Shown here: positions 17,392 to 42,438 of the stretch, one piece after another | Numbering within the stretch: the first letter of the stretch is position 1 | How the letters are laid out: each line of letters opens with the position of its first letter | DNA from: an uncultured bacterium | GTDB lineage: Bacteria; Babelota; Babeliae; Babelales; Babelaceae | Assembly (NCBI GenBank): GCA_963819815.1 | Contig: CAWFXL010000001.1 | Coordinates: forward strand, 1,216,001-1,280,000 | Reading direction: 5' to 3' | DNA length: 64,000 nt | The notes under the pieces: model-generated | What the model saw: the letters and a program-made list of their open reading frames with translations, nothing else | Databases searched by the model: none | What the model was told of the DNA's origin: nothing | Translations under genes and position numbers: made by a program

Positions 17392-19776
17392 ATGAATTCG
17401 CTCATGATGTTGGCTGCATTGGGTGGTCAGCTTTTATCAGAAACTGATCCTCAAAGCTTGCTAGATGCTCAAGCTTTGGTAAAAGATACCCTACAGCAAC
17501 ACATTGCCGATCCTAAGCTCTTTAAGAAGGCCGCTGTTACACTTTTTAAGTTTGGACAATCTGGAAGCTTCGAGCGAGCATGTTGTGATCAACTTATTGA
17601 AGATCTTGTTAAGGCACATTATCTTGATGCTTCCTCTACGCGCGTTCCTTTTTCTGATGGCGTTTCAAGCATGCAATATGGCTATGTGATTGCCTCAGAT
17701 GCGCTGCGCATTTTTAATCTTGGTCATGGCAATTGTCACCAAGTTGGATGGTCAGGGGCTCGAGCCGTTTTTAATGCGGCGGCGCTTCAACAGCAGCTTC
17801 AATCGGGATTGTTGTCAAGTCGAGCTCTTGATGCTACTTGTCATGATATATATACAACAAACCCAGGGATTAAGAGAAGCATAGAGTATAGCATTTTCCG
17901 ATCTAAGGTTAATGCGGTATGTTCTCTGCTAAGACGGGACCAAAGCAAATTAGATGAAGCTTGGGCGCTGTTAAACAAAGATAAACCTGATACTCTTAAA
18001 GTTCTTTGGCATATGCAACCTGATTATTTCATTAGAAGGACAGGCTTAGATTTTTTAAGGTCATATCATGTTACTAATGCAATTTCATTGTTAGGAAAAG
18101 CCTCTCATGTAGCTCTCAGGGAGGTGAGTGCCGAATTAGTTAAAGTTTGTATAGGGATACTTGATGCAGCCTCTCTTGAGAAAATCGATAAGATGCTCCA
18201 CGATATGTATACCGCAATTGGTGTGCAAAGGAATGTCAGCGATCCAGATTTGAAGAGATTCTTTTTATGGAAAGATGATATCAAAAAGTATAGATCTCAG
18301 ATTATATCACTGGTGCTTACCGGTCGACCTTCCTCTGTTGGAAAACAACTAGCAGCCCTTTGTAAGGCAGATCATGTAAAAGTATGTGGTGAAAAGCTAC
18401 GCAGAGAATTGGCACATCTTGACGCGTCCCCATCTCGCTTTAAGTCGAAAATAAGTGATTGCATCCTTCTTGTACATAAAGCCGTCGCTGAAAATATAGT
18501 ACAGGCGCAAGATGCTTGCTGTACTAAAGACGATCGACTGTGTGTTATTAGTGGAACTATTAATGGTTGTGATTGCCCTTGGGCAAAGACTGCGCTTGCT
18601 CTATTTAATTCCCCCGATTGTGAAATCGATGATGTTATTGATCTATTAAAGAAATCGAGCAAGAGGGGCATTCTAGAGGCTCTCAGCATGATAAACGAAA
18701 GTGAGCATGAAAGGATTCAAATGAGTAGTGAGAAACTTAGAAAGGATCTGGAGGCTTGTAGAAGAGAGAACCTTGCGGGGATGTTCAGAGAGTTGGAACC
18801 GCTAACCACCCCCCAGGTACAAAAGGCTAAAAAGAAGTTGCGTGAAAAGCAACGTGATGGTTTACAGCTCGAAACGACTTTGCGTGAAGAGTTACAACTT
18901 TTGCAGGATATTGAACGTGATAGAATGAGTGCTGTATTTGCTAAGCTTGATTTGGAATGCCCTAAAGCAGGACAATCTTGGTATAAAGAGGAGGGGCTTT
19001 TCCTTGAGCCAGCTGAATTGCAGGAGGCTTTAGCGAAGTTTAAAGATCCAGCAATCGATGAAGCGATAAAAGTTCTTGAAGATGCTGTGACTCAGGAGGA
19101 TGCCCTCAAAGCTCTTGATGCAATACGGAGAATAAAAATAGATACCAAAGATGCGCGAGCTCTTTTAGAATCTGATCATACTAACTTTGAATCTTGGAGT
19201 GTAGCGGATGATTGTATTCTAGCAGGTGAAGCAATACAAGGCATTCGTAAGAACCTACCGGAAGAAAACAGGATAGCTAATCCTGAACATCTGCTTAGTC
19301 TTGTTAGGTTGCCAAATTTAGGCCTACCTCGAGAGAATGTTCATATTCTTGGAGATTTCAAGAACGCGGGACAACTGTTATTTGATCCTACTGATGCTAT
19401 CCTTCCACAACAAGCGGATCTGCTTGGTGAAGGTTGCGAGTCTGATGAGCAAAAAAGTGAACGTGTAGCGAATGCGATAAAAAAGCATTTTGAAGAGCAA
19501 TATCTCGATAAAGATAGCGCAGGGGCACATCACTTTATATGCAAAGTTCAGCGCCCCTTTGAACATTGGGTTCTGGTGTCCTTAGTTAAGTTTGCTGGTA
19601 AAAAACCTATATTGGTACTGCGTGAGACACAAAATTGTCCAGTTGAGTCCCATAGCCAATCATTTCTTGTCGGGTCTGATACTGTACTTGCCTTTCTGTA
19701 TAATACATTTATGCGCCAAGAGGGACAAATTCATGGAAGTTCTAGTACTAGTGGCATGAGTGCGAGCAGATTCTAG
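17392..19776 (+). CDS. Paralogue A of a split papain-like peptidase family; catalytic Cys absent
   Basis: Colinear with 19863..22196 (NPGI..IEY..FR, QPDYFIRR, AGAHHFIC, HWVLVSLVKFA); has WS-GAR where the paralogue has WSCGYR. Confidence 0.7.
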   Translation: MNSLMMLAALGGQLLSETDPQSLLDAQALVKDTLQQHIADPKLFKKAAVTLFKFGQSGSFERACCDQLIEDLVKAHYLDASSTRVPFSDGVSSMQYGYVIASDALRIFNLGHGNCHQVGWSGARAVFNAAALQQQLQSGLLSSRALDATCHDIYTTNPGIKRSIEYSIFRSKVNAVCSLLRRDQSKLDEAWALLNKDKPDTLKVLWHMQPDYFIRRTGLDFLRSYHVTNAISLLGKASHVALREVSAELVKVCIGILDAASLEKIDKMLHDMYTAIGVQRNVSDPDLKRFFLWKDDIKKYRSQIISLVLTGRPSSVGKQLAALCKADHVKVCGEKLRRELAHLDASPSRFKSKISDCILLVHKAVAENIVQAQDACCTKDDRLCVISGTINGCDCPWAKTALALFNSPDCEIDDVIDLLKKSSKRGILEALSMINESEHERIQMSSEKLRKDLEACRRENLAGMFRELEPLTTPQVQKAKKKLREKQRDGLQLETTLREELQLLQDIERDRMSAVFAKLDLECPKAGQSWYKEEGLFLEPAELQEALAKFKDPAIDEAIKVLEDAVTQEDALKALDAIRRIKIDTKDARALLESDHTNFESWSVADDCILAGEAIQGIRKNLPEENRIANPEHLLSLVRLPNLGLPRENVHILGDFKNAGQLLFDPTDAILPQQADLLGEGCESDEQKSERVANAIKKHFEEQYLDKDSAGAHHFICKVQRPFEHWVLVSLVKFAGKKPILVLRETQNCPVESHSQSFLVGSDTVLAFLYNTFMRQEGQIHGSSSTSGMSASRF

Positions 19777-19870
19777 CGATCGACATTCCCCATGTAGCCT
19801 GCCATACTAGAGATGCCGGTTGAAAACCTCAAAAAAGCGTTTCAGCGATAAGGATCTTATTTATGAATTC
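19777..19870 (+). repeat. Diverged duplicate of the 3' end of gene 16797..17381 plus RBS and start
   Basis: GTTGAAAACCTCAAAAAAGCGTTTCAGCGATAAGGATCT..ATGAATTC matches GTTGAAAACTTAAAAAAAGCATTTCAGAGATAAGGATCT..ATGAATTC at ~17349-17399. Confidence 0.85.
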
Positions 19871-22196
19871 CATGATGTTGGCTGCCTTGGGAGGGCAGCT
19901 TTTGTCCGCAACTCTTTCCCTTGAAGAGGCTCAAGTTTTCGTAAAAGATACCCTGCGACTATTTATTACTGATGAAGAAATCTCTAAGAAAGAGATTTTT
20001 AAGAAGGCATCACGTACGCTTTTTAAACTAAAACAATCTGCAAGTCTCGACCGAGAAAAGTGTTGCTTGCTTTTTGATGAGCTTATAAAGGACCACTCTT
20101 CTTGCAAATTGCTTCCTCTTCCCAGAATCATCGATAGTGCAAGATATGGAAATGCAAGTGTTTTAGCATCACAACGAGTTTTCTATCTTCAGCATGATGA
20201 TCAACAAGATGATTCTTGGTCGTGTGGATACCGGTCAATTTTGAGTGCAGCATGGCTCCAAAGTCATCTTAAACCTGGATCGGTTATGTCAAGTACAGAT
20301 TTAGGAAGTATGTGTCGTGATCTGCGTCTGCGTAACCCCGGTATTAGGGGATGTATAGAGTATATTGCTTTTCGGACTAAGATTGAGGAGGTACGCTCTC
20401 TTATAAGAGAAGACCAAAATAATGTGGAAGAAGCTTTAGCTCTGTTGAGTGAACAGGAACCGGATACTCTGAAGGTTCTTTTACAACTTCAACCTGATTA
20501 TTTTATCAGACGGGTTGTTTTGAAATTTTTGAAGGCAAATCTTAAAGATGGTCGTATTGTTGATTCGATTGCATTAATGGGAAAAGCCTCTCATAACGCT
20601 ATTAAGGCTGCGGGTACCCAGTTAGTTAAACTCGTGATGAGAAAGATTACCGTATCGAAAGTTGATGCTCTCCTCAAAGCCATACAAGATGCGCTTAAGC
20701 GCGAGAAGGATTCGGAACTTAAGCGCATTGTTTCAGGAACTCATCTAGAGGCCAGAGTAGAAATGGTTGAACTTATGCTTACTAGCCGACCGCTAAGCTT
20801 GAAGAACCAGATAGCTGCTCTTTGCGAACGAGACAGCGCTGTAAAAGAAAGATATAAACAGCTACGTCAAGAATTGGAACGAGTAAAGTCTCTTAATTTC
20901 TCTGAGTTTTCTGCTGAAATAGAGGCATGCCGTAATAAGGTAAAAGCCGTTATTGAGGCAAATACTCAGGAGATACAAGATGTCCTTTGTGCTAATGATC
21001 CTCGATTGAGGGAAATTAACCAAGTTATTGATCGTTGTGGTGACCCTAAGATACGAGCTGCTCTTGCACTTTTCCACTCTGCTGACTTTGCGCATGATGA
21101 AGTTATTGACCTTTTAAAAAGTTCTGAAATAAATGGTATTCAAGGCGCCCTCCAGCTTATCGATGAAAGTCAATGTACCTTGATTCAAAAGTATATTGCA
21201 GATGTTACAGAGCGCTTGGCTAAAAATGAGCCTGAAGGCCCCGCAAGCATAGGTGGTTCATCTTCTGATTCGGCAGTTGAAAGGGTTTTAGGGCTTCTTC
21301 AAATGGCTGTAGATCTTCTTAATGAGAAGAGGGTGGATGCTGAAAAGAATATACGGGAGGCTCGAAACGTTTGGCGGGAAGCGGTTAATGAAAGGTTTCT
21401 TAATGCTTTTTCTAGGCTTGGGTTTGGGTGTCCTAAAGCCGGTGTGCTTACTGTTCCTACCGAACAATTGCGTGGTTATGTAGAGAAGCTTAGGGATCCC
21501 CTCATAGATCGAGCTAAAAGGGCTCTTGATAATTTACAACCTGGGGATGATATGCGCAATGCTGTTGCAGCAATAAGGGCTATTAGGGATATAACCACGA
21601 AAGAAGATGCAATAGCTCTTTTACAATCTGATCATACAAAGGGAAATGCCTGGACAGTGAGTCCTGTGTATAAACTTGCTTGTCAAAGGTTAGTGGATAT
21701 TAAGAGCGCTTTACCTGAATATGAAGATGAAGCTTATGTGGACCACCTCATTAAGCTAGCCAGAATGCCAATGCTTGGGCTGCCTCAAGACCATGTCCAT
21801 ATGCTTGGGGATTTTGCTAATCGTGGTGATGTTGCTAATCGTGGTCAGCTGTTGTTTGATTTTTTAGACCCCTTTCTTTCTCGTATTTTAGATTCTCTTG
21901 TTGACGCTTGCGAGACACAAGATCAAAAAAGTGACCGTGCTGTGGATGCGATTAGAGAGCATTTTAAGGTCAAATATCTAGATACTAATACAGCAGGTGC
22001 ACATCATTTTATATGCCGCATTAATGGGAATCACTGGATTCTCGTATCTTTGGTTAAATTTGCTGATAGAAAGCCTATATTGGTAGTGCTTGATTCGTTC
22101 AATAAGCAAATTGAGTCTAATAGTGGATCCGGCAGTGTTGGTGCTGATACGGTGCTTGCCTTTCTCTATAATAAATTACTAGTCCCTCTTGGGTAA
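19863..22196 (+). CDS. Paralogue B: putative papain-fold cysteine peptidase (deubiquitinase-like) with a large helical insertion
   Basis: QQDDSWSCGYR (Cys121) ... NHWILV (His724) ... VVLDS (Asp744). Confidence 0.65.
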   Translation: MNSMMLAALGGQLLSATLSLEEAQVFVKDTLRLFITDEEISKKEIFKKASRTLFKLKQSASLDREKCCLLFDELIKDHSSCKLLPLPRIIDSARYGNASVLASQRVFYLQHDDQQDDSWSCGYRSILSAAWLQSHLKPGSVMSSTDLGSMCRDLRLRNPGIRGCIEYIAFRTKIEEVRSLIREDQNNVEEALALLSEQEPDTLKVLLQLQPDYFIRRVVLKFLKANLKDGRIVDSIALMGKASHNAIKAAGTQLVKLVMRKITVSKVDALLKAIQDALKREKDSELKRIVSGTHLEARVEMVELMLTSRPLSLKNQIAALCERDSAVKERYKQLRQELERVKSLNFSEFSAEIEACRNKVKAVIEANTQEIQDVLCANDPRLREINQVIDRCGDPKIRAALALFHSADFAHDEVIDLLKSSEINGIQGALQLIDESQCTLIQKYIADVTERLAKNEPEGPASIGGSSSDSAVERVLGLLQMAVDLLNEKRVDAEKNIREARNVWREAVNERFLNAFSRLGFGCPKAGVLTVPTEQLRGYVEKLRDPLIDRAKRALDNLQPGDDMRNAVAAIRAIRDITTKEDAIALLQSDHTKGNAWTVSPVYKLACQRLVDIKSALPEYEDEAYVDHLIKLARMPMLGLPQDHVHMLGDFANRGDVANRGQLLFDFLDPFLSRILDSLVDACETQDQKSDRAVDAIREHFKVKYLDTNTAGAHHFICRINGNHWILVSLVKFADRKPILVVLDSFNKQIESNSGSGSVGADTVLAFLYNKLLVPLG

Positions 22197-22412
22197 CTGC
22201 TCTGTGGAGCGATTGTGTGCACCGCTCTATGCTGCTTGGTTGCAGATAAGTCCGTATGGCTGCTGGTATGGCATTTTCCTCCATCTATACTAAGTGTGTA
22301 TGCACTAATTCAACCGACACGTACTCCTTTATTACGATTTATAGGACCTGTTGCTCGCAGGGAGGGGCGTGCTATACTAACGATAATTAACTCTAGTAAC
22401 CTAGGAGAAATT

Positions 22413-23738
22413 ATGAAAAAGATAGTACTATTAGTAAGTATTTTTGGTACAGCATCTATGTATGCAGCCGCACCAGTAGTGAACAATGCGGATGAGTTTA
22501 CTGAAGAATTAAAGAGACAGTTACGTAGCCAGGGGCATAGGGACTGGGAGCAAATTTTTGGTGCGGATTGGAACAAAGCATCAAAAGAAGAAAAAATTGC
22601 TATGATGGAAGGTGCTTTCGCAAATAATAGAGTGCGATGGGACCTTTTAAAGGTTACTGAATCTATCAGAATGTTGGCAAAGCCAAAGACATTAGCATCC
22701 CTTAGTTTAGCATCATTGGGTATCTTTGCAGCGTGGCATGCAACGTCCTTAGTAAAGGATGTGGCGAAACACTACCTTCTTATACCACCGCTTTGCAATC
22801 CTTCTGAGTCTTCGATTCGAGGATGGGATAGCACGGTGAAAGACTTTTTTGTGTATGAGGAAAAAAAGTTCCCTGTACGAAGTGACGTGGTACTTACAGA
22901 GCATCTTAAAGAACGCTTTGCAAAGCTGAGTCACGCGATTACGAATGCAGCCAAGAATGATGTAAACTTTAGACATTATCTTCTGTATGGTCCTCCAGGA
23001 ACGGGTAAAACCATGATGGCAAAAGCAATTGCGCAGGAAGCAGGCCTCGAGCATATGTATTTCTCTGCGGCTAACCTTGAGCAGTATAGTCTTGAAGAGG
23101 GCGTTCAACAGATTCGGCATCTTTTTGAGTATGCAAAATCCTATCCTAAAAAGCTTATGGTTATTATGGATGAAGCAGATAGTATCTTTGCTCATCGTGA
23201 TACTTGTTCTGATAAGGTCCGTACCTTCTTGAACTTAATATTAACGTATACAGGTACTGAACAGAGCAACTATGTGGTAATAGCTATTACCAATAGACCG
23301 CAGGACTTTGATGAGGCTGCGTTGAGCCGTTTTGGGGTGAAGATCAAGCTTGATGCCCCAGGGTTTGAAGAGCGTAAAATGATGTTTGCGAATTATGCCC
23401 AAAAATACTTTGTGGATTCACATACGGTTAATCGTGATAAACGTTCAATCTTCCAATGGTTATTCAGTAGAAAGCCTGCTGAAAGAATGCCATTGAAGAT
23501 CGCAGAAGACGTATTTACTGATGAAACATTCTTTGATCGACTTGCAAAAAGAAGCGAGGGGCTAGCAGGACGTGAGATCGCTGACGTTATATCGAATGTG
23601 CAGCATGATGCGTATGGAACCCCAGATCATACGGTCACCCAAGAAATGCTCTTGAATGCTCTTGAAGATAAGTTTCAAGATATAGCGACGATGAAAGACT
23701 TTACGAAGGGACGTGGCAGAGCAACAGCTGCAGCCTAA
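22413..23738 (+). CDS. AAA+ ATPase, ATAD3-like, with an N-terminal signal peptide
   Basis: AGGAG RBS, ATG 22413, MKKIVLLVSIFGTASMYA; TM segment; FRHYLLYGPPGTGKTM, MDEADSIF, TNRPQDFDEA. Confidence 0.85.
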   Translation: MKKIVLLVSIFGTASMYAAAPVVNNADEFTEELKRQLRSQGHRDWEQIFGADWNKASKEEKIAMMEGAFANNRVRWDLLKVTESIRMLAKPKTLASLSLASLGIFAAWHATSLVKDVAKHYLLIPPLCNPSESSIRGWDSTVKDFFVYEEKKFPVRSDVVLTEHLKERFAKLSHAITNAAKNDVNFRHYLLYGPPGTGKTMMAKAIAQEAGLEHMYFSAANLEQYSLEEGVQQIRHLFEYAKSYPKKLMVIMDEADSIFAHRDTCSDKVRTFLNLILTYTGTEQSNYVVIAITNRPQDFDEAALSRFGVKIKLDAPGFEERKMMFANYAQKYFVDSHTVNRDKRSIFQWLFSRKPAERMPLKIAEDVFTDETFFDRLAKRSEGLAGREIADVISNVQHDAYGTPDHTVTQEMLLNALEDKFQDIATMKDFTKGRGRATAAA

Positions 23739-23758: not shown

Positions 23759-23798
23759 AAGACTCCGTATGTGCAACCACATACGGAGTCTTCTTTTT
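23759..23798 (+). terminator. Rho-independent terminator
   Basis: AAGACTCCGTATGTG-CAAC-CACATACGGAGTCTT (15-bp stem) followed by CTTTTT. Confidence 0.85.
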
Positions 23799-23876
23799 GC
23801 TCTAAAAAAATACTCGATCTCTTGACAGTGCCCTAGGCAGTTTTCTAGGCTTGGCTCACATGAAAGAGAGGTCTGT

Positions 23877-24245
23877 ATGCAAAGATTATTTATGCGATGG
23901 TCTGTCGTGCTCAGTGTCGCACTATTTTGTGTAGGTAACGCAGGTCATCTGCACGCCAAAGTTATCACGTTGGTTAATGATGTGGTACATAATGGAGTGG
24001 GGAGTCCTTTTGAGATACCTGAAAGAGTTCACGGTGATAAGCTCGTTATAACATCAACCTCTCATAAAGCGGTAATTATAAGAAAGGGTAGCACGTGGGA
24101 CCTTTCGGATCTATCTTCGACCTATAAGACTATAGAATTTGCGGGAAATGCTCGCTTAGTATGTGAACCAGGCTCTCGACTGCATGGCACCGGTGGGGTG
24201 TTACGCTTTGTAGATGAGGCTCGTTTTATTGTGGGGAAGGAGTAG
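23877..24245 (+). CDS. Small secreted beta-rich hypothetical protein
   Basis: GAGG RBS; signal peptide; TTGACA at 23822 upstream. Confidence 0.7.
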   Translation: MQRLFMRWSVVLSVALFCVGNAGHLHAKVITLVNDVVHNGVGSPFEIPERVHGDKLVITSTSHKAVIIRKGSTWDLSDLSSTYKTIEFAGNARLVCEPGSRLHGTGGVLRFVDEARFIVGKE

Positions 24246-24246
24246 T

Positions 24247-26601
24247 ATGAGCTTGAGCAAGGGAATCATACTGCTTGTCTCCACGGTGTCTTTGTGTAGT
24301 GCGGGAAGAACGGTTACTGATGGGTTTCAAAGTAAATTTGTGCGACCTTCAGTTGATAGACCCACTCCTGATCCTAATCCCTGCTTTCGATTTTTTGATG
24401 TCTATCTGCCTGATGAGTTTGATACGAATCCTGAGATGACCTTTCCTATTGTGTATCATCTTACTGGTTTGGGCGGTACCAATACTCAGTATTCGATGTG
24501 CGATCAGATGGTGATGGATGAGATGCTTGCAAATAAAGAAGTCGTTCCGATGATTATTGTTGCACCAGATCCTAGTACTCTTAATTATAGCAGCAGTTTT
24601 TGGACCGACTCTAATCTCGTGCAAGATCCTACTGAGTCATTTAATAATATGTTTGAAAAATACATAATTGATGAACTCATTCCGTTTGTAGATGCAAAGT
24701 ATCGTCAAAAGACAACTGCTGACGGTGATGCAGGTCCCTTTCGTGCCGTAATGGGTCAATCTATGGGAGGGTATGGTTCTCTATTCTTTGGTATCAAACA
24801 TCCGGAGATGTTTTGTGGGTATGCAGGAGATAGCGCAACAGCTTTTTGGTTGCTCAATACAAACTTAGCCAGTCCCCCAGAGCCCGGGTTTCCTGATGGC
24901 AATCCTATGTTTAGCTTTAGCAAACTTCTTATTCCAGAACTTTCCCAATCAGTGCCTCCGGGAAGACTTGAGTTTGGCAATGGTGATCTTACGGCCGGCT
25001 TTTTTTCTCAGGCAGGAGCATTTAGTCCGATTGTGGAAGGTATTGGGCCATCCAATTGTACCGATGAGACGAATGCCTGTCTTGCTTCAGCACCATTTTG
25101 TTTAGCCTATCCTTTTCTTATGGCTGACCCCGCTACTAATGTTCCTCAGATTGTGAATGGTAGTTTTGTAGTGAACCAACCGATTCTAGATGTCTGGCAG
25201 ACTTTTGATCCCTTTGTATTTCTTGATACTGCTGATCCTGCAACTCTTAATTCTAAGGCAATTTACCTTGATGCGGGTGATGACCTTGTAAATGAGATCG
25301 TTGATAATGTCGGAGCACATTATTTTTCCGCTAAGTTGAGCTCTATGGATGTAAATAATGAATTTCTTTTATTTTGCGGGGGACATACATCATGCACTGC
25401 ACCTCCTATGCTCTACTGTTACCGTTTTACGACGAACCTAAAATTATTCTCAGGTAAGTTTTCAGATGCGGGAATGCCACCAGCTAAAACGGTTATCACG
25501 GGTGACATGACGATTGAACTTGCCGATAGCTCAGTCATGAGCATAACTGATAAAGCGTTGCTTGCTATTGAGACAGTGGATGTATTTAAAGTTTCTAGTA
25601 CGTCAAACGTAACATTTAACATTACTGACTCTGCGCGTCTTGAAATTGGAACTGATGACATACTTGGTGGTGGTCTGCAGGTGGGTAATGCATTTGGTAA
25701 AGCAAACTTGATCTTTGATCATGCTCGTGTTGATGATAGCATAACATGTACTTTGAATATTAATGGGCCAGGTGCGGTCCTTCAGATAGGTAAGCAAGGG
25801 TATCTTGGCTTTGGCATTGGTGTTATTGGTAATAATACCGATGTTGCTAACTACTGGGGACTAACCTCTTTAACTAATGTTGATAGTGTAGTACTTTCAT
25901 TTAACGAAGGACGATTTGAACATAACCAAATAGCTTCAGCATTGGCTGATCGGGGTTCCCTATTAGCACTTGGGGTGAGTAACGCGTATGAGATGATGCT
26001 AAATCCTGAGACCTTCGTCATATCAGGGGGAGCCAATCTTGCAATGATCACCGAAGCAAATCGTATTCATCCTCTTGTACAGGATACTGCTGGTGTTGTC
26101 GACCCAGGTGGAATTCGTAACTGCATTGTGCCAGTACCGGCTCAAGAATTTGATGACTTTTATGGTCCTCCGAAGGGTTTATATAACTCCGAGACCTTCT
26201 CCCAAAACTTACTAACCGTCGGTATCTTATCGTCATCACTGATGCTGTTCGATACTGACAAAGAGCCTCTTGCTAACCCTGCAACGCAGGACCAACTCTA
26301 TACCTTCCTTGCTGTTCAAAATTACTTTGATCAAGGAAGAAAGCGTGCACCTATCAATGAGCTTGATGGGCAGTTAGTTGTTGGCTATATTACGCCTGAG
26401 ACCGTTACCACGGGTGGTGTAACCACAACGACCATGCACATTAATCGCTTTGTGGTGAACCAAGATGATCCCTGTAATGCGTTAACGAACCCCTTTCCCA
26501 CCGATAAAATTCTTGAAGAGGGTGCTGTAGGTATTGCGCTAGCAACTATCGATGGTGAGCTGCAGGTGGTGAGGCTCTTCGATCTTAATCCAGTGGTCTG
26601 A
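24247..26601 (+). CDS. Secreted esterase (alpha/beta hydrolase, Fes/antigen-85-like) fused to a beta-rich C-terminal domain
   Basis: VYLP...PIVYHLTG, nucleophile motif GQSMGGYG, YLDAGD, GGH; C-terminal ~390 aa Gly/Asn/Thr-rich. Confidence 0.8.
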   Translation: MSLSKGIILLVSTVSLCSAGRTVTDGFQSKFVRPSVDRPTPDPNPCFRFFDVYLPDEFDTNPEMTFPIVYHLTGLGGTNTQYSMCDQMVMDEMLANKEVVPMIIVAPDPSTLNYSSSFWTDSNLVQDPTESFNNMFEKYIIDELIPFVDAKYRQKTTADGDAGPFRAVMGQSMGGYGSLFFGIKHPEMFCGYAGDSATAFWLLNTNLASPPEPGFPDGNPMFSFSKLLIPELSQSVPPGRLEFGNGDLTAGFFSQAGAFSPIVEGIGPSNCTDETNACLASAPFCLAYPFLMADPATNVPQIVNGSFVVNQPILDVWQTFDPFVFLDTADPATLNSKAIYLDAGDDLVNEIVDNVGAHYFSAKLSSMDVNNEFLLFCGGHTSCTAPPMLYCYRFTTNLKLFSGKFSDAGMPPAKTVITGDMTIELADSSVMSITDKALLAIETVDVFKVSSTSNVTFNITDSARLEIGTDDILGGGLQVGNAFGKANLIFDHARVDDSITCTLNINGPGAVLQIGKQGYLGFGIGVIGNNTDVANYWGLTSLTNVDSVVLSFNEGRFEHNQIASALADRGSLLALGVSNAYEMMLNPETFVISGGANLAMITEANRIHPLVQDTAGVVDPGGIRNCIVPVPAQEFDDFYGPPKGLYNSETFSQNLLTVGILSSSLMLFDTDKEPLANPATQDQLYTFLAVQNYFDQGRKRAPINELDGQLVVGYITPETVTTGGVTTTTMHINRFVVNQDDPCNALTNPFPTDKILEEGAVGIALATIDGELQVVRLFDLNPVV

Positions 26602-27964
26602 TTACCTAAGTGTGGTAATCGTTCCATCAGTATCTAAAAAACCCTTATAATAATAGGAGATATAAAGTATAGGGCGCTGCCATTCGATAGCTTTAAAGCG
26701 GGCAGCAAGATACATAAGATGCCGAATGTAGGCCGATTTTGCCCAGAAATCATTTGAGAGTTCTGCGATGACCGCATCTGGATACTGATCATCAGGGCTA
26801 TCGCTGAAGAAAAGTTCAGAGCATACGTAGGGTACCAATGCTACGCCCGGTAAGACGGCAAAGGGAACGCGGGGATTTGTGGACGGTTGTACGATAGGAC
26901 CGACTCCATGAAATAGGGTGCGTATAAAGCTTACGTTATACCAACTTATTGATTCAGTAACTGCCATCGTATGCCGTTTATTGAAGCTTTCTTTAATCTG
27001 CCCATCAGAGATCCAGTACACCGTATTACGGTATTGATCATCTTCCCATTTAAAAGCTCCCACTAAGATCTGTATTGGCTTGCCAAGAGATTCAGTATCC
27101 CAATAGGTAGCAAGTTCGCGAGCGGTATCAAGATTCAGCTTAAATAATGAAGATTCGGGAAGGATGACGACCTCGAGGTCCGGGTACTTCGCTATGAGTG
27201 ATCTGATATCATCTTTGATTGCCTCTATCGATGCCATAGGTTGAGGTACCGGCAGGAATTTTTTTTGAAGTGTGGCTACTTTGTGAAGCCATTGAGGGGG
27301 AGTTTGGGGAGGCTTTGCAGACATACACTGTAAAACCCAGGGAAGCATTCCGATAAGAGGGCATATGCATCTTAGGAGAGTACTCTTTGTGAGTAACGGG
27401 ATCGTGAAGGCAGCATTGGTAAGTAACAGAAACCACATGAGAATACCTTTACCCAGTACAGGCATCCATGAAAGAAGTGCTGGCTGTTCTGCCAGGGGAA
27501 GCAGTGGATACAGAAGAAAGTATCCTTCCCAATAATTAAACATGCTTAAACTTAAATGTATAACCCAATAAAAGTAGAAGCCGGTGGTGAGTATCCACAC
27601 GCCAAGTCGTGCATAGGGAGAAACAATCTGTGCTCGCGTAAGGAAGCGTTGAGGTGAGATAAAACCATACCCCTCCAAAGAATCCTTGAATAATGAGAAT
27701 AACTATTGAAGGAATGATACGGGCCCAAACAGGGCCTATTCCTAATAAAAAGAGCGTCTGAAGTATTCCGGCTCCTCCTAGGGCCCAGAGAAGGGCGCTG
27801 TAGAAAAAGCCATCTTTAAAAGTGAGATTCTGGCGTGAGCCAAGATAGAATAATGGCACGAAGCAGATGAAAGAGCCCCACCATAAGGAAGGGCTCATGA
27901 TAAGGGCAAGCCCATACACGAGTGCTGAGCTTGCGAGTATCATCCATCTGTTTACGGTCTTCAT
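26602..27964 (-). CDS. lnt: Apolipoprotein N-acyltransferase (Lnt)-like; one +1 frameshift at ~27652
   Basis: N-terminal TM region (27536..27964) plus nitrilase triad ILPES / FNKRH / YVCSE; removing one base gives a 453-aa ORF. Confidence 0.7.
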
Positions 27965-28560
27965 GCAGCTTCCGCATTTTCTGCTTTCTCTGCAGCCGCT
28001 GCTCCTGTTAGGTCTTTGGTTCCTGCAAGGAAAAGAACTGGCTTATTCTTTACCGGATCCATATAGACGCCAGTACCGTCAGTTTTTAGGGTGATATCCG
28101 CTTTGAAATCACCAGCAAGTTCTTTATGGAGTAATCCAGCATAGGTCATTTTACCGATTTCAACCCACGTTCCTGCGGGATCACTCGCAAAACGGCGATA
28201 GATTCTCATAAGTGTTTTACCAGCAAGTCGAGTACCGGGCCTTTGTCGTTTGTTGTCAAAGGCGATAGTTACCAGCTGACCTTTAGATTCACCCGTTGTT
28301 GGGGTGAAGCTATAGGCAGTTTGAGTACCAGGCTCTTTTGGAAGAGTGAGGGTGACCTTTTTTTCTTGAGTGATCAAACCCAATGAGGTAATTTGATTGC
28401 TCGGTATAGTAAGGGTCATCGTTTCACCAATCGCATTCAAAACCACTGTTTGTTCGCATTGAGAATTTTGCCCACAGGGTTGAAGTACTGTTTTACTATT
28501 GTCTGAATTTGCAAGTAACCCACAGGGGACCGCAAGTAAAGTTATAAGTAATTTCTTCAT
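27961..28560 (-). CDS. Secreted protein, 'NAIG/RPGT' paralogue family
   Basis: Signal peptide; C-x5-C-EQTVVLNAIG; RPGT; overlaps the lnt-like start (ATGA). Confidence 0.75.
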   Translation of the reverse strand: MKKLLITLLAVPCGLLANSDNSKTVLQPCGQNSQCEQTVVLNAIGETMTLTIPSNQITSLGLITQEKKVTLTLPKEPGTQTAYSFTPTTGESKGQLVTIAFDNKRQRPGTRLAGKTLMRIYRRFASDPAGTWVEIGKMTYAGLLHKELAGDFKADITLKTDGTGVYMDPVKNKPVLFLAGTKDLTGAAAAEKAENAEAA

Positions 28561-28581
28561 TATAGTTTCCTTTAATATATG

Positions 28582-29139
28582 TTAGATGTTTACAGTAAAT
28601 GAACCATCTGGTGATAGCGTTACAGAAACTGGTTCAAGAACCTGATTAGTTTCTACGTAGAGGATATTATTTCGTAACCACTCATTTTTCGCATCATTAT
28701 AACGGTAGAGTTCAACGATATTAAAGTCTTTCCCTGCAGTTAACTTCCTTCCTTCTGCTGTTTGATACGTAAAGTATCGAGTACCAGGACGGGGTGTGCG
28801 CTTCATTTCAAGACCTAAGTATACTGTTTTGCCACCTTGGGTAGTAAACTTATATAAAGTCTTAGCGCCCACTTTTGATGGGATCTGCAGCTTCTCATTG
28901 GTTGCTGAGGTTACCGTGCCAAGATCTATAAAAGATGCTGCACCAGGATCCACATCAAATGTTGATCCTATTGCATTGAGAGTTTGAGTTTGGCTACAGC
29001 TACCGCCACCTAGGCAGGTTTGAACACCGATAAGTGCCTTAATGTCAACTTTTGTGCTATCCATTGCTCGCATATCTCTGACGTTATACGCCAGTGCTGC
29101 GAAGGTAAGTGCGGTGATGATTTTGAATTGGTTCTTCAT
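28582..29139 (-). CDS. Secreted protein, 'NAIG/RPGT' paralogue family
   Basis: CLGGGSCSQTQTLNAIG; RPGT; close duplicate of 29735..30307. Confidence 0.8.
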   Translation of the reverse strand: MKNQFKIITALTFAALAYNVRDMRAMDSTKVDIKALIGVQTCLGGGSCSQTQTLNAIGSTFDVDPGAASFIDLGTVTSATNEKLQIPSKVGAKTLYKFTTQGGKTVYLGLEMKRTPRPGTRYFTYQTAEGRKLTAGKDFNIVELYRYNDAKNEWLRNNILYVETNQVLEPVSVTLSPDGSFTVNI

Positions 29140-29157
29140 GGTTATTCCTTTTTGTGA

Positions 29158-29712
29158 TTATGGGTTAATAGTTATAGGAAATGAAACTGGGTCGACGCCC
29201 GTTTTTACGAAGATTATGCCTTCGCGTGACCAGTCATTTTTGGCGTCATTATACCGGTAGATTTCAATGATATGATAATCCTTTCCTGCAGTTAACTTCT
29301 TACCGCCTTTAGTATGTAAGATGGGGAAGTCAGCGCCCGGAGCTGGGACGGGCTTCATTTCAAGTCCCATATGCACCGTTTTACCGTCTTTGCGGGTAAA
29401 TTTAAAGAGTGATTGTGCGCCCACTTTTGCGGGAAGCGTAACTATCTCGACCTGTGTTGAGGTTACTTTCCCTAGATCTTTATACACGGCAGTTTTTGGG
29501 TCAATCGTAAAGATTGACCCAAGTGTATTAACTGACTGATCTGGACTACAGCTGCACATGCGGTTATAAAGGACAGTTGTATTTCCAACTTTCTTAGTGA
29601 AGTACGTGTATATCCTTTCTGCAAATGAGATAACTGATGGTAAGCATAGAAGGATGATCGCTATCCTTTGCCACCATATTACCTTTTCTAATTGCTGAGT
29701 ATCCATGTTCAT
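29158..29712 (-). CDS. 'NAIG/RPGT' family paralogue with a replaced, membrane-anchor-like N-terminus
   Basis: C-terminal two-thirds align with its neighbours (GLEMK, LTAGKD, YRYNDAKN.W); N-terminus is unrelated. Confidence 0.75.
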   Translation of the reverse strand: MNMDTQQLEKVIWWQRIAIILLCLPSVISFAERIYTYFTKKVGNTTVLYNRMCSCSPDQSVNTLGSIFTIDPKTAVYKDLGKVTSTQVEIVTLPAKVGAQSLFKFTRKDGKTVHMGLEMKPVPAPGADFPILHTKGGKKLTAGKDYHIIEIYRYNDAKNDWSREGIIFVKTGVDPVSFPITINP

Positions 29713-29734
29713 TCCTAGCTTGCTGGTGTGTTAT

Positions 29735-30307
29735 TTATATCGTTCCGTGTTCTCTTACGGTAAAAGCACCATCAGGCGATAACGTTACAGGAAGTCGCTC
29801 TAAAACCTGATTGGTTTCTACATAGATGATATTATTTCGTAACCACTCATTTTTCGCATCACTATAACGATAGAGTTCAACGATATTAAAGTCTTTCCCT
29901 GCGGTTAACTTCTTTCCTTGTGCTGTTTGATAGGTATAGTATCGTGTGCCAGGACGGGGTGTAGGCTTCATTTCAAGACCTATGTACACCATCTTTCCAT
30001 CTTGTGTAGCAAACTTATACAAAGTCTTAGCTTTAACTTTTGATGGGATCTGGAGCATCGCACTCGTTGGCGAGGTTATGGTACCAAGATCTATAAAAGA
30101 TGCTGTCATAGGATCTACATTAAATGTTGACCCTATTGCATTAAGAGTTTGTGTTTGGGTACAGCTACCGCCACCTAGGCAGGTTTGAACACCGATGATT
30201 GCTTTAATATCAACTTTTACACCGCCACCCAATGCTTGGGCATCCTTGACGTGACAAGCCAAAGCAGCGAATGTAAGTGCTGTGAGGATTTTGAATTGAT
30301 TCTTCAT
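29735..30307 (-). CDS. Secreted protein, 'NAIG/RPGT' paralogue family
   Basis: MKNQFKILTALTFAALA; CLGGGSCTQTQTLNAIG; RPGT. Confidence 0.8.
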   Translation of the reverse strand: MKNQFKILTALTFAALACHVKDAQALGGGVKVDIKAIIGVQTCLGGGSCTQTQTLNAIGSTFNVDPMTASFIDLGTITSPTSAMLQIPSKVKAKTLYKFATQDGKMVYIGLEMKPTPRPGTRYYTYQTAQGKKLTAGKDFNIVELYRYSDAKNEWLRNNIIYVETNQVLERLPVTLSPDGAFTVREHGTI

Positions 30308-30398
30308 GATTAATTCCTTTTTGTTAGATCTGTGTTTATGATGTTATTTGCGCTACTGTTCTCTATCTCAGGATGATCTTCAAATAGATCATCTTCTC

Positions 30399-30947
30399 TT
30401 ATGTGTTTATCACTGTCTGCCCAAGAAGAAACTGAGTGTCCTGTGCAGTGAAGGTTCCATCTGGCTTTACGCTAAATGGCATGTTCAGATTTCCAAAGTT
30501 GAGATTTCCAACCTCGGTCCAGGAGCCTTCTTGATCAACATTTTTTACATTCCTATACATTTTAATAACCATCTTGCCGAAGTCTTTGGTGCCGGGTCGC
30601 TGTGCTACATTATCAAAAACGAGATACACCGTTTTACCTGCAAGGTCATAACCTTGCGAAGGAACAAAGCTATAGGCCGTTCGTGTTCCAGCGGTTACCG
30701 GCAGCACAAGATCTTGATCGGGTTGTGAGAGATCAAGAGGCTGAATTTTAAGCTGACTAAGTGGTATGTTTACCTTGTCTCCAATAGCATTGACTACCTG
30801 CCTACATTTTGTTTTTGGACCACCTTTAACACCAGTACAGGACTGTATCGCTACCCGTATGTTTAATTTAAGATCAAAAAGGGCAGCTTGTATGGAGGAT
30901 ACTCCCAGTGCTGAGCCGGTTAAGATTAAGAGCATATATCTAGTCAT
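30399..30947 (-). CDS. Secreted protein, 'NAIG/RPGT' paralogue family
   Basis: Signal peptide; C...CRQVVNAIG; QRPGT; WTEVG; KPDGTF. Confidence 0.75.
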   Translation of the reverse strand: MTRYMLLILTGSALGVSSIQAALFDLKLNIRVAIQSCTGVKGGPKTKCRQVVNAIGDKVNIPLSQLKIQPLDLSQPDQDLVLPVTAGTRTAYSFVPSQGYDLAGKTVYLVFDNVAQRPGTKDFGKMVIKMYRNVKNVDQEGSWTEVGNLNFGNLNMPFSVKPDGTFTAQDTQFLLGQTVINT

Positions 30948-31003
30948 CTTAATTCCTTTTATTGATTAGGCTTGTATTCATTCTTTCACTTTTCTGCTAT
31001 CCC

Positions 31004-31456
31004 TTAGGGTAATTTCATGCGTATATTAGAATTACATGTAGCTCCCGGAGCACCATTACAGATTACATGCTTATCTCCGATTGTAAGGTTTGTCTGACAG
31101 GTACCATCGGCTGGAGCCTTACATCCTTGATTCATAGATCCCCATCGAATGCATTTTCCTGATTCATCATTGGTAATGCAGGGAATGTTTGCATGTGTCG
31201 TACCTTGACTTGTGGCTGACGGAAGTATCGCATTGCATGACTTGCCCGCTTGAGCGCTACATGATGCTGAACCCAAAAAAGGAACCGAAACGTTTATTGA
31301 ACAGGGACCCTGGCATCCTTGGACCAAGCCGCCCCAAGAGGTACATTCGCCTTTACTATTTCTTTGATGACAGGGAACCTCAACGGTTACTGAGTTTTCA
31401 GCGGCTTCAAGATAGCCGAGTGTCATACTGAGTACGAACAAAACTTTCATCTTCAT
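31004..31456 (-). CDS. Secreted Cys-rich protein with two 6-Cys repeats
   Basis: PC...G.C..WG...QGC...C...C...G..CN occurs twice. Confidence 0.75.
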   Translation of the reverse strand: MKMKVLFVLSMTLGYLEAAENSVTVEVPCHQRNSKGECTSWGGLVQGCQGPCSINVSVPFLGSASCSAQAGKSCNAILPSATSQGTTHANIPCITNDESGKCIRWGSMNQGCKAPADGTCQTNLTIGDKHVICNGAPGATCNSNIRMKLP

Positions 31457-33571: not shown

Positions 33572-34723
33572 ATGATAAAAAGAAAATTCTGGATAGACAA
33601 AATTGAAAAAGCCTGGAAGGTACGGTCAATCGTGTGGCTGGCAGGAGTTCGTCGTGTTGGTAAAACATCACTTTGTCAGACACTTGACGATATTATATAT
33701 TTCGATTGCGAGAGGCTTCAGGTGCGGGAGCAGATTGAGAGAGATTATGAGCTCTTCCTACGGGAACATAGTGGCCGGAGAGTTGTGCTTGACGAAGTTC
33801 ATAAGCTTCAAAATCCATCAGAAATATTAAAAGTCGCAGCAGATCATTATCCTGAAACAAAGATAATTGCTACTGGATCTTCTACCATAGAAGCTTCAAA
33901 AAAATTTAGTGATGCTCTAACGGGTAGGAAAGTTTTGGTTCATCTGACCCCTATGCTTCTCTCTGAGGGGGGGCTTTTTGGAAACACAAGTATGGCGCAT
34001 AGAATGCTTTACGGGGGTTTGCCCTTTTTTTTCCTCAGTGAACAGCTCCTTACTAGCGAGTATAAAGAATGGTTTAACTCTTTCTGGGCAAAGGATGTTC
34101 ACGAACTTTTTCAGATCGAGAAGAGAGCGTCATTCCTAAAATTCACTGAGCTGATGTTTGCACAAAGTGGGAGTATGTTCGTTGCATCAAAGTTTGCTGT
34201 TCCCTGTCAAATTAGCCATCCGACAGTATCGAACTATTTAGCGATAGCCAGGGAAACTCTTACTGCAGTGGTCGTGCGACCATATAGCACTCATGTGATA
34301 ACTGAAATTAGGTCTGCACCCAAAGTGTATAGTTTTGACACCGGATTTGCCTGCTATACGCGCGGTTGGACTTCCTTAAGAGAAAGTGACTACGGAGTTC
34401 TCTGGGAGCATCTCATACTTAATGAGTTAATTGGCTACTTTTCGCAAGAGGACATTCATTACTGGCGGGATAAAAGTGATCATGAAATAGACTTTATATT
34501 CATTAAAAATCGTAAAGAAGAGCCGGTTGCTATTGAGTGTAAGTGGAATTCGCGCTTTTTTAATCCTCTCAATATGAAGGCATTTCGTAAGCATTACCCA
34601 AAAGGTGAAAATTATCTTGTATCTGCTGACCTTACCTCATCGTATAAACGGGTTTTTGAGGGCATATCAGTCACTTTTGTTACCCCTGAAGATCTGATTA
34701 AAGAGCTTTCCAAGAGCGACTAG
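33572..34723 (+). CDS. AAA_14 + DUF4143 family ATPase
   Basis: GVRRVGKT, LDEVH, ATGSS, PKVYSFDTG, EIDFI...IECKW. Confidence 0.9.
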   Translation: MIKRKFWIDKIEKAWKVRSIVWLAGVRRVGKTSLCQTLDDIIYFDCERLQVREQIERDYELFLREHSGRRVVLDEVHKLQNPSEILKVAADHYPETKIIATGSSTIEASKKFSDALTGRKVLVHLTPMLLSEGGLFGNTSMAHRMLYGGLPFFFLSEQLLTSEYKEWFNSFWAKDVHELFQIEKRASFLKFTELMFAQSGSMFVASKFAVPCQISHPTVSNYLAIARETLTAVVVRPYSTHVITEIRSAPKVYSFDTGFACYTRGWTSLRESDYGVLWEHLILNELIGYFSQEDIHYWRDKSDHEIDFIFIKNRKEEPVAIECKWNSRFFNPLNMKAFRKHYPKGENYLVSADLTSSYKRVFEGISVTFVTPEDLIKELSKSD

Positions 34724-41214: not shown

Positions 41215-42438
41215 ATGGCGATATACAATTATCAGGCGGTATCGCGCGAGGGGAAAAAAGTATCAGGGCAGATTGATGCTTCAACCACTCAAGGTGCGCG
41301 AGAGCTTTTGGTAAAACAGGGCTTATTTCCTACTCGTGTCATATTAGCAGCTGATGAGAGAGCTGAAGAGCCATGGTATCGTAAACTTTTTAGACGTGAA
41401 ATTAGTTTAAAAGACAAAATATTCTTTTCAAAACAACTTGCCGTTCTTTTGCGTTCGGGAATCCCTTTAGTACAAGCTCTTGAATTATTGGTGGAGCAAT
41501 CGACGGGTCCTCTTAATAGAGTTGTCATAACGTTACGTGATGGAATTAAAGAAGGTCGCTCATTAGCAGATGGGCTCGCGCGGTACCCTGCAACCTTTGA
41601 TTCGATTTATGTACAGCTTGTTCGAGCAGGTGAAGCAACGGGGAACTTAGAAACAATTTTAGATCGCTTGACCGAATTTCTTGAGCGCCGAGAAGAGCTC
41701 AGGAAAAAAGTTATTAGCGCATTGAGATATCCCCTATTTCAGTTGGGAGTCGTTGTACTCGTTGTATTGGTACTGCTGAGCTTTGTTGTGCCACAAATTG
41801 CCTCGGTATTTCAAGGTCAAAATATTGCCTTACCACTACCTACAAGGATTCTGATTGGTATGTCTAATTTTATTCTGAACCATTATATTATCTTAGGTCT
41901 GATTATTGGCACTTTGGTAGGATTATTTTTATTTTGGAAGTCGACACCAAATGGTGCCTATACGATTGACGTGTGGAAATTGAAACTGCCTTTAGTGGGC
42001 TATTTTTCTCGTACGAATGCTATCGTGCAGTTTACTCGCACGCTTGGGATGCTTGTTGAGGGAGGAGTTAATTTGGCTGAAGCTCTTAACATTGTCGTAA
42101 AAATAGTTGATAATAAGGTGCTCAGCAATGCACTTGAAAAGGCACGTGAGAATATTATCAAGCAAGGAAAGATCGCCCAGTATTTGAATGAGACGCGTTT
42201 GTTTCCACCTGTGGCGATACATCTTATTAATACAGGAGAGCAGAGTGGTGAACTTGGGCCTATGCTTAATACTGTAGCTCGGTATTATGAAGATGACTTA
42301 CGTGAGCGCTCTGATGCATTATCAGAGCTCCTTGGCCCTGCAATGCTTATAGTAATGTTTGTAGTAGTAGGATTTGTGATAGCATCGGTTATGTTACCGA
42401 TTCAGCAAATGCAAAGTGTGGCAGAAAATCTGCGCTAA
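41215..42438 (+). CDS. gspF: Type II secretion / type IV pilus platform protein GspF/PilC
   Basis: QLAVLLRSGIPL, AGEATGNLE, ALRYP, GEQSGEL. Confidence 0.93.
   Translation: MAIYNYQAVSREGKKVSGQIDASTTQGARELLVKQGLFPTRVILAADERAEEPWYRKLFRREISLKDKIFFSKQLAVLLRSGIPLVQALELLVEQSTGPLNRVVITLRDGIKEGRSLADGLARYPATFDSIYVQLVRAGEATGNLETILDRLTEFLERREELRKKVISALRYPLFQLGVVVLVVLVLLSFVVPQIASVFQGQNIALPLPTRILIGMSNFILNHYIILGLIIGTLVGLFLFWKSTPNGAYTIDVWKLKLPLVGYFSRTNAIVQFTRTLGMLVEGGVNLAEALNIVVKIVDNKVLSNALEKARENIIKQGKIAQYLNETRLFPPVAIHLINTGEQSGELGPMLNTVARYYEDDLRERSDALSELLGPAMLIVMFVVVGFVIASVMLPIQQMQSVAENLR

Follow-up and report, generated by a model that had tools for sequence, protein, structure and literature searches.

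Introduction

ATAD3 is an essential mitochondrial inner-membrane ATPase that is linked to human disease and whose mechanism is unsettled, and its long N-terminal coiled coil is used for oligomerization and for reaching the outer membrane. Another membrane-anchored AAA protein, the protease FtsH, occurs in bacteria, mitochondria, and plastids. For ATAD3, the review PMC10419812 places the coiled-coil N-terminus in the intermembrane space and has the ATPase facing the matrix. Here we describe a gene for an ATAD3-like AAA ATPase (P0001; 22413..23738, + strand, 441 aa, stop codon included) in a 64-kb stretch of DNA from an uncultured bacterium, which we call the window; its proteins and open reading frames (ORFs) were read on that stretch, and coordinates are window positions unless a contig is named. 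Similarity searches and trees confirm, at the level of sequence, that of all the AAA proteins sampled none stands closer to ATAD3 than the bacterial family to which the gene belongs. We judge it about 60% probable that the product, a short form within this family, is a single-ring AAA+ ATPase, kin to ATAD3, that is anchored in the inner membrane with its motor facing the cytoplasm.

The bacterial protein and ATAD3 have an N-domain, one anchor helix, and the AAA domain in the same order, and they share a P-x-L-[A/V]-x-E-[T/S]-S motif past the helix, a single second-region arginine, and a G-R-[D/E]-I sensor-2. They differ at the N-terminus, where the bacterial protein opens with a putative signal peptide of bacterial type, as judged by its shape, and continues with an N-domain of ~70 residues and three short helices in place of the long coiled coil of ATAD3. 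Long-form paralogues (550-551 aa) do have long N-domains, yet these cannot be aligned with ATAD3_N. Additionally, the charge bias of the helix flanks is reversed in the bacterial rows, the window protein ends in Ala-Ala-Ala, and it is ~28% identical to ATAD3 and falls in a bacterial branch other than the one closest to ATAD3.

The inferred layout is also that of FtsH, in which a membrane signal at the N-terminus and a second membrane helix flank a short periplasmic domain and a classical AAA domain follows in the cytoplasm. However, the ATPase has no M41 zinc-protease domain in a Pfam scan, and the genome's own FtsH scores 1.1e-12 against it and falls in the tree outgroup. A single AAA ring tethered by one N-terminal helix is shared with Msp1/ATAD1 and Bcs1, and an Msp1 structure appears at Foldseek rank 42, but no sequence affinity was seen beyond the AAA core, BCS1_N is lacking, and these families were not tree rows. 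Human CLPB/SKD3, as presented in PMC9934407, is a precedent only for a AAA+ disaggregase in a compartment equivalent to the periplasm; it differs in its AAA+ clade and its ankyrin domain.

A bacterial sister family of ATAD3

In a BLASTP comparison with an insect ATAD3 (P0065), the ATPase aligned with E 3e-40 and 28% identity (query 94-412, target 252-554), a span that runs from a hydrophobic helix to the C-terminal lid. The reverse search, with P0065 against the bacterium's own genome, returned three paralogues (1.7e-46, 1.9e-33, and 2.4e-33, the last being this gene), followed by the next match at 4.1e-12 and FtsH at 1.4e-10. Among 5.8 billion proteins searched, the top matches were 27 bacterial-type proteins without ATAD3_N (26-73% identity), and directly next came eukaryotic ATAD3 with PF12037 and PF00004 (E 1e-38 and weaker, ~73% query coverage); Cdc48-type proteins reached similar summed scores only through double matching, with coverage of 31-38%. 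When 33 bacterial long forms were compared with 22 ATAD3 sequences in hhalign, the match (E 1.1e-79, 341 columns) extended from ~15 residues before the helix to the C-terminus, and the N-terminal regions did not align.

These alignments show a continuous block of homology with ATAD3 that takes in the pre-helix residues, the helix, the motif, the AAA core, the lid, and the C-terminal helix. The ATAD3_N domain is missing, and the gene is classed by these comparisons as a member of a sister family and not as an ATAD3 orthologue. In the automatic annotation at JGI, two close homologues already carry the name 'ATPase family AAA domain-containing protein 3A/B'.

An earlier note on this DNA, made by a model from the letters alone, had described the product as a signal-peptide-bearing bacterial homologue of ATAD3. 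The strings that it quoted are all present in the translation (MKKIVLLVSIFGTASMYAAAP, LASLSLASLGIFAAWHATSLV, IPPL, DVVLTEHL, FRHYLLYGPPGTGKTMMAK, EGVQQIRHLFEYA, MDEADSIF, LTYTG, and TNRPQDFD), and its central claim of an ATAD3 relative with a signal-like N-terminus is borne out by the BLASTP match at 3e-40, the reciprocal search, and a clade with 100/100 support. In the phylogeny the protein groups with ATAD3, as the note would have it, and not with FtsH, Cdc48-type, or multi-AAA proteins (Bcs1, spastin, and Msp1 were not rows), so that the refuting outcome named in the note, clustering with ordinary bacterial AAA families, did not arise.

Full-text literature searches, in which subscription journals lay outside the coverage, found no paper describing bacterial ATAD3 homologues and nothing relevant on Dependentiae in connection with AAA, signal peptides, or mitochondria. 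A PDB sequence search with true ATAD3 returned no solved ATAD3 structure, its best match being Cdc48 (6.6e-28). Among the eukaryotic sequences, six proteins with ATAD3_N (P0035, P0039, P0058, P0255, P0256, and P0264, one of them named from the oomycete Pythium oligandrum) have strongly hydrophobic, signal-like N-termini and mostly cluster together in trees. These may be ATAD3 paralogues directed to the secretory pathway or to plastids.

The AAA motor and its predicted structure

The AAA core (PF00004, E 7.2e-28) covers residues 189-313 (22977..23351, +) and contains Walker A GPPGTGKT (193-200), Walker B D253-E254, N294 as sensor 1, and R306 as the only second-region arginine. It is followed by a helical lid and C-terminal helix (residues 318-438; 23364..23726, +) with sensor-2 G386-R387 and a predicted local distance difference test score (pLDDT) mostly of 89-98. 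In an alignment of 99 rows, 8 of them eukaryotic ATAD3, the residues G193, G196, G198, K199, E254, N294, D300, R306, G386, and R387 are invariant. The alignment shows that the residues predicted to bind and hydrolyze ATP are intact here and do not vary within the family.

Past the anchor helix lies the motif IPPLCNPSESSIR (residues 124-136; 22782..22820, +), which carries the shared P-x-L signature with a 2-residue insertion (IPPLCNPSESS). In its columns P125 is invariant, L127 is Leu or Ile, position 133 is Thr or Ser, and position 134 is mostly Ser. Besides this motif, the signatures common to the 99 rows are the single arginine R306 with D300 and A302, and sensor-2 G386-R387. The pore-loop position is Tyr or Phe in most bacterial members versus Leu or Met in ATAD3, and an aromatic residue there would be compatible with substrate threading.

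An AlphaFold2 model built from the 99-row alignment has a classical AAA fold (mean pLDDT 90.5, predicted template modeling score 0.77), laid out as an N-terminal helix, three short helices (26-89), a helix at 91-121, an extended segment at 122-137 bearing the motif, the AAA domain, the lid, and a long C-terminal helix. In the Pfam scan only PF00004 was above the cut-off, with no ATAD3_N, M41 protease, or BCS1_N, and no NCBIfam model reached its cut-off, the FtsH model scoring 71 bits against a cut-off of 600. Foldseek searches of the PDB gave generic AAA matches at ~1e-15 (proteasome Rpt subunits, FtsH, p97, spastin, and Msp1). Structure and sequence matches in the PDB are of this generic kind and cannot discriminate between AAA families, so they were set aside for family assignment. 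A pattern search of contigs with the Walker A and Walker B stretches likewise returned only generic AAA genes of unrelated phyla and was uninformative for the family.

Membrane topology

The first 20 residues (22413..22472, +; beginning MKKIVLLVSIFGTASMYAAAP) resemble a signal peptide, with MKK, an uncharged hydrophobic run, and an Ala-rich end. The assignment was made on this shape (two Lys, the hydrophobic run, the Ala-rich end) and on its recurrence in the family. Cleavage, if it takes place, would probably fall between A18 and A20, at an uncertain site with an imperfect -3/-1 pattern. By a crude hydrophobicity rule, 83 of the 94 bacterial family members of ≥400 aa have a signal-like N-terminus; its specificity is limited, however, since it also flags 10/30 rows of eukaryotic ATAD3.

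A Kyte-Doolittle scan finds two hydrophobic stretches in the ATPase, at residues 4-22 (1.87) and 96-114 (1.34). Between them lies a short helical N-domain (residues 21-93; 22473..22691, +) with AlphaFold2 helices at 26-39, 45-49, and 58-89 (pLDDT 64-88), which we infer to be periplasmic. The second stretch belongs to a Gly/Ala-rich helix (residues 94-114; 22692..22754, +; LASLSLASLGIFAAWHATSLV, with IPPL after it) that is presumed to be the membrane anchor. It is moderately hydrophobic (1.34 over 19 residues, 1.48 over 21), forms part of a continuous helix at 91-121 in the AlphaFold2 model, and aligns with the ATAD3 transmembrane segment in both BLASTP and hhalign.

We propose that the N-terminal signal would carry the first ~90 residues over the cytoplasmic membrane and that helix 94-114 would then stop transfer. 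The protein would thus be held in the inner membrane, its short helical domain projecting into the periplasm and its ATPase ring lying on the cytoplasmic side. This arrangement would mirror that of ATAD3, the periplasm corresponding to the intermembrane space and the cytoplasm to the matrix. By analogy with ATAD3, the ring may spend cytoplasmic ATP to organize or remodel something at the membrane, and the long-form paralogues, with helical N-domains of 150-200 residues, may extend towards the outer membrane.

A cytoplasmic ATPase is the most likely topology predicted from these features because the signal, cleaved or not, plus one helix makes an even number of crossings. The earlier note had taken the ATPase to be exported, which is probably wrong, since two crossings leave the AAA domain in the cytoplasm. 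Its premise of an ATP-poor periplasm is also weak, as TLC-type nucleotide transporters, such as energy parasites use, would be at work here according to the gene content of the genome. The invariance of the catalytic residues implies that the domain must be where ATP is, for which the candidate sites are the cytoplasm, which we favor, a periplasm fed with host ATP, and the host cell.

Several observations weigh against this topology or its functional interpretation. The moderate hydrophobicity of helix 94-114 (1.34-1.48) means that it may not stop transfer. Lys and Arg are more frequent on the N-side of the helix in 14/17 short forms and on the C-side in 0/17, and the N-side is likewise richer in 49/74 long forms and the C-side in 10/74, an excess that runs against an orientation with the C-terminus inside; in eukaryotic ATAD3 the C-side flank is the richer in 7/8 rows and the N-side in 1/8. 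The flanking-charge rule is weaker for long domains translocated by Sec. As to kinship, PF12037 (ATAD3_N) is matched neither by the ATPase at E ≤ 0.01 nor by two paralogues at E ≤ 1, and the tree outgroups contained no Bcs1, spastin, katanin, or Msp1 rows (spastin and Msp1 appeared only as generic structure matches). As to function, the role suggested for the family is borrowed from ATAD3, a protein whose mechanism is itself unsettled. The cluster that holds the gene is conserved in the genus and includes, next to it, a protein that may be deubiquitinase-like and host-directed, which would fit a host-facing role equally well or better.

Distribution of the family

The genome (1.64 Mb, 2 contigs) encodes at least four members of the family, including the 441-aa short form. 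One paralogue has 550 aa and ends AVAAA, and another has 551 aa, shows 39% identity to ATAD3 where the two align, and is closer to ATAD3 than the window gene is. The fourth (G000:C1:1150433-1151872, -; locus L098 1384-2823) has 479 aa, a degenerate Walker A (GPSGCGKR), and a very long branch, and may be an inactive partner subunit.

When 1.84 billion cluster representatives were scanned in full with HMMER, 202 proteins scored E ≤ 1e-30. Pfam scanning of 87 single-stretch matches separated 76 without PF12037 from 11 with it (1e-6); most of the 76 start like signal peptides and many carry motifs of the N-P-T-L-A-Q-E-T-S-L type. We counted the spread over 261 species genomes of the phylum (0.5-2.4 Mb), all listed as 'same order' or closer, and observed a match at E ≤ 1e-35 in 129 of them and in 92 of the 189 of high quality. 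Since 1e-35 admits a AAA-core-only match in an unrelated genome (7.1e-38), we added a stricter count at 1e-50, by which at least 114/261 genomes carry the family in the table. There are up to five matches per genome, and the occurrence is uneven over taxonomic families (e.g., 34/35, 11/12, 19/40, and 2/16).

The phylum carrying the family is probably Dependentiae. Relatives of the 551-aa paralogue bear the NCBI names 'AAA family ATPase [Candidatus Dependentiae bacterium]' in two cases and, for one further match, 'Epsilonproteobacteria bacterium' (a metagenome-assembled genome); the nearest atlas cluster is labeled 'commonest Chlamydiota' for 8 members, and a Bdellovibrionota label was seen as well, all of these names being provisional. 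A Chlamydia-like origin, considered on account of the atlas label, was rejected for this genome, which encodes FtsZ, yielded no FHIPEP/SctV-type protein at 88% completeness, and has paralogue relatives named as Dependentiae. For Dependentiae-like parasites, the family would represent a multi-copy ATPase that is either envelope-associated or host-facing. More broadly, a bacterial sister family would offer proteins that are small and free of introns, suited to structural studies and biochemistry, a route to probing the role of the conserved post-helix motif, and a concrete dataset on where ATAD3 came from.

Phylogeny and the origin of ATAD3

Trees were built from the AAA-plus-lid region excised by the family hidden Markov model, with outgroups made up of the AAA proteins that the searches had returned (Cdc48-type and multi-AAA proteins and, from the bacterium's own genome, FtsH and three further AAA proteins). 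FastTree (204 rows) and a quick IQ-TREE run (100 rows) both united all bacterial-type and all ATAD3 rows against the outgroups; near-duplicates and fragments were removed by hand for the smaller sets after the 204-row tree had been viewed. A careful IQ-TREE run (62 rows, 275 columns, LG+C20+F+G4 by posterior mean site frequency (PMSF); support as ultrafast bootstrap/Shimodaira-Hasegawa-like approximate likelihood ratio test) separated the bacterial rows plus ATAD3 from 8 other AAA domains with 100/100. Within this clade, support was 100/99 for eukaryotic ATAD3, 94/77 for the main bacterial branch, which holds the window gene, and 95/88 for the eukaryotes together with 10 bacterial rows, a subgroup to which the 551-aa paralogue belongs.

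This last grouping favors a bacterial source of ATAD3, if the root is right. However, forcing the bacteria to be monophyletic cost 6.33 log-likelihood units, with a p of 0.237 in the approximately unbiased (AU) test (LG+C20 PMSF), and under LG+G4 the tree with bacterial monophyly was better than the quick free tree (AU p 0.774; both on the 62-row set). The sister relation to ATAD3 is thus well established, and the trees are compatible with descent in either direction. The earlier note's suggestion that the gene might shed light on where ATAD3 came from is reasonable, the bacterial family being the closest ATAD3 relative found here, but the trees give no donor direction.

The best-surviving alternative concerns this direction: the bacterial family could descend from one or more ancient captures of host ATAD3 by intracellular bacteria, in which case ATAD3 would not be bacterial-derived. 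We regard this as a serious possibility that nevertheless has less than even odds. The bacteria that carry the family appear host-dependent, the AU tests do not reject a single bacterial clade, and we found no family match at E ≤ 1e-45 in 401 genomes from the class of a Paracoccaceae genome, with three candidates scored in each, so a source in the mitochondrial ancestor gains no support. Against capture, the careful tree places eukaryotic ATAD3 with the bacterial subgroup inside bacterial diversity, and the bacterial proteins carry putative signal peptides of bacterial type and lack ATAD3_N.

Two bolder readings, which we consider unlikely, are that the ATPase works on host ATP outside the cytoplasmic membrane, either in the periplasm or at host membranes, and that early eukaryotes took ATAD3 from such a bacterial family, whose carriers today are intracellular parasites. 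The first, if true, would give the first extracytoplasmic AAA+ motor of a bacterium, allowed by the lifestyle of an energy parasite. The second is hinted at by the grouping of the eukaryotes with one bacterial subgroup (95/88) and by the family not being found in the Alphaproteobacteria sampled.

Extracytoplasmic alternatives and the gene neighborhood

Export of the whole protein, with a AAA ring in the periplasm that would be fueled by host ATP entering through outer-membrane pores, is in our estimate improbable as an explanation of the gene. The weakly hydrophobic helix and a flank charge bias opposite to that of ATAD3 speak for it, the TLC-type transporters would imply periplasmic nucleotides, and PMC9934407 supplies a AAA+ precedent in human CLPB/SKD3, which resides in the intermembrane space of mitochondria, a compartment equivalent to the periplasm. 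These points are countered by the hydrophobic segment and motif, which are conserved in position with the ATAD3 anchor over 99 rows, and by the need for a folded, hexamer-forming ATPase to be exported unfolded through Sec. We also know of no bacterial periplasmic AAA+ unfoldase, which we counted against export.

The gene neighborhood bears on a host-facing role. Two paralogous genes, at 17392-19776 (+) and 19863-22196 (+), lie upstream of the ATPase and encode proteins of 794 and 777 aa with neither a Pfam domain nor a signal peptide; the adjacency of the second (19863..22196) to the ATPase is kept in the genus. Peptidase_C78 matches these proteins below the cut-off (E 0.056, residues 101-133), and their nearest atlas clusters are SseL/ElaD (score 0.87), which is a lead only. 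By this weak lead, the upstream neighbor might be cysteine-protease-like or deubiquitinase-like. Downstream, and likewise kept in the genus, are two genes: the one at 23877-24245 (+) encodes 122 aa that start like a signal peptide, and the one at 24214-26601 (+) encodes 795 aa that include an esterase domain (PF00756, E 7.1e-20). The order of large paralogous protein, ATPase, 122-aa protein, and esterase is conserved in the genomes G001 and G003 and partly in G005, and is not kept around more distant family members.

The bacterium looks obligately intracellular, with its 1.64-Mb genome, nucleotide transporters, and an ankyrin-repeat protein. Elsewhere in the window there are genes for MurJ, MlaD, a GspF-type protein (type II secretion system (T2SS) F-type, 41215-42438), and the ankyrin-repeat protein, and no FHIPEP/SctV-type protein was found in the genome, which is 88% complete.

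Very unlikely, in our view, is a host-directed effector that would be exported by Sec and released, e.g., via a type II secretion-like system, to act as an ATAD3 mimic inserted into host membranes, possibly those of mitochondria, as the earlier note had suggested. The intracellular lifestyle, the genus-conserved cluster with its possible deubiquitinase-like protein and its esterase with a signal-peptide-like N-terminus, the T2SS F-type gene, and the patchy, multi-copy, non-universal occurrence of the family in the phylum speak for it. On the other side, nothing observed points directly to secretion, the family has a long and varied history within bacteria (76/87 scanned representatives lack PF12037), the invariant catalytic residues and conserved anchor fit a cell-envelope role, a membrane-anchored protein would be an unlikely type II substrate, and the window protein would be a poor mimic of ATAD3 because it belongs to the farther branch and lacks the ATAD3 N-terminal domain.

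The Ala-Ala tail

The ATPase ends in Ala-Ala-Ala (residues 439-441; 23727..23735, +), an ending common to other signal-peptide-like proteins of the genome. Within the family, 23/104 bacterial rows, from other organisms, end in Ala-Ala versus 0/35 eukaryotic ATAD3 rows. Genome-wide, 28 of the 1259 ORFs of ≥150 aa have this ending, 14 of them as Ala-Ala-Ala. A lenient rule, which flags 531/1259 overall, assigns a signal-peptide-like N-terminus to 24 of these 28. In at least 12 of the 28 a hydrophobic segment lies 30-40 residues from the C-terminus; these include nine tandem genes of one family (C1:982391-998379), whose products end ...PQ.LPAAA. By analogy, such a segment near an Ala-Ala end resembles membrane proteins with a short cytoplasmic tail, and we counted it as favoring an ATPase that would lie in the cytoplasm. 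The tail itself may be a degradation or sorting signal. Another ORF of the window (27961-28560, -) likewise has a signal-peptide-like N-terminus and ends in Ala-Ala.

Start codon, flanking signals, and other genes of the window

The longest open frame at the site of the ATPase is 22215-23738 (+). The upstream gene and the ATPase start are separated by a non-coding gap of 216 nt (22197-22412), across which the frame stays open from a GTG at 22215, and the public gene call for an identical protein (P0002) accordingly begins at an upstream start and has 480 aa. We favor the start at 22413 over this call because close homologues of P0001 have 424-456 aa and because a Shine-Dalgarno-like AGGAG (22403..22407, +), read directly, lies at a 5-nt spacing from the ATG.

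A sigma-70-like promoter match (22144..22172, +; CTGATA, 17 nt, TATAAT; 10/12 matches) falls inside the end of the upstream gene, and is weak evidence given that 3 promoter-like sites were seen in the region versus 4.3 expected from shuffles. A hairpin resembling a terminator, its 15-bp stem trailed by a run of T (23759..23802, +), lies 21 nt past the stop codon; 1 such site was seen versus 1.6 expected from shuffles, and its stem is unusually long. Searches of sequencing runs found four soil-metagenome DNA runs that contain ≤0.29 of the sampled words of this DNA, and no RNA run containing them was found.

The genome's transfer-messenger RNA gene (G000:C1:1058578-1058946, -) has the predicted tag AEMPGLNAHVACA, for which aragorn reports 'Tag not identified'. 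In the window, six tandem ORFs of 150-199 aa (27961-31456, -), of which the Ala-Ala-ending ORF at 27961-28560 is the first, have no Pfam match, and two genes, at 1153-2106 (-) and 33572-34723 (+), encode AAA_14/DUF4143 ATPases. The first of these appears to lack the front of AAA_14, its match beginning at profile position 72.

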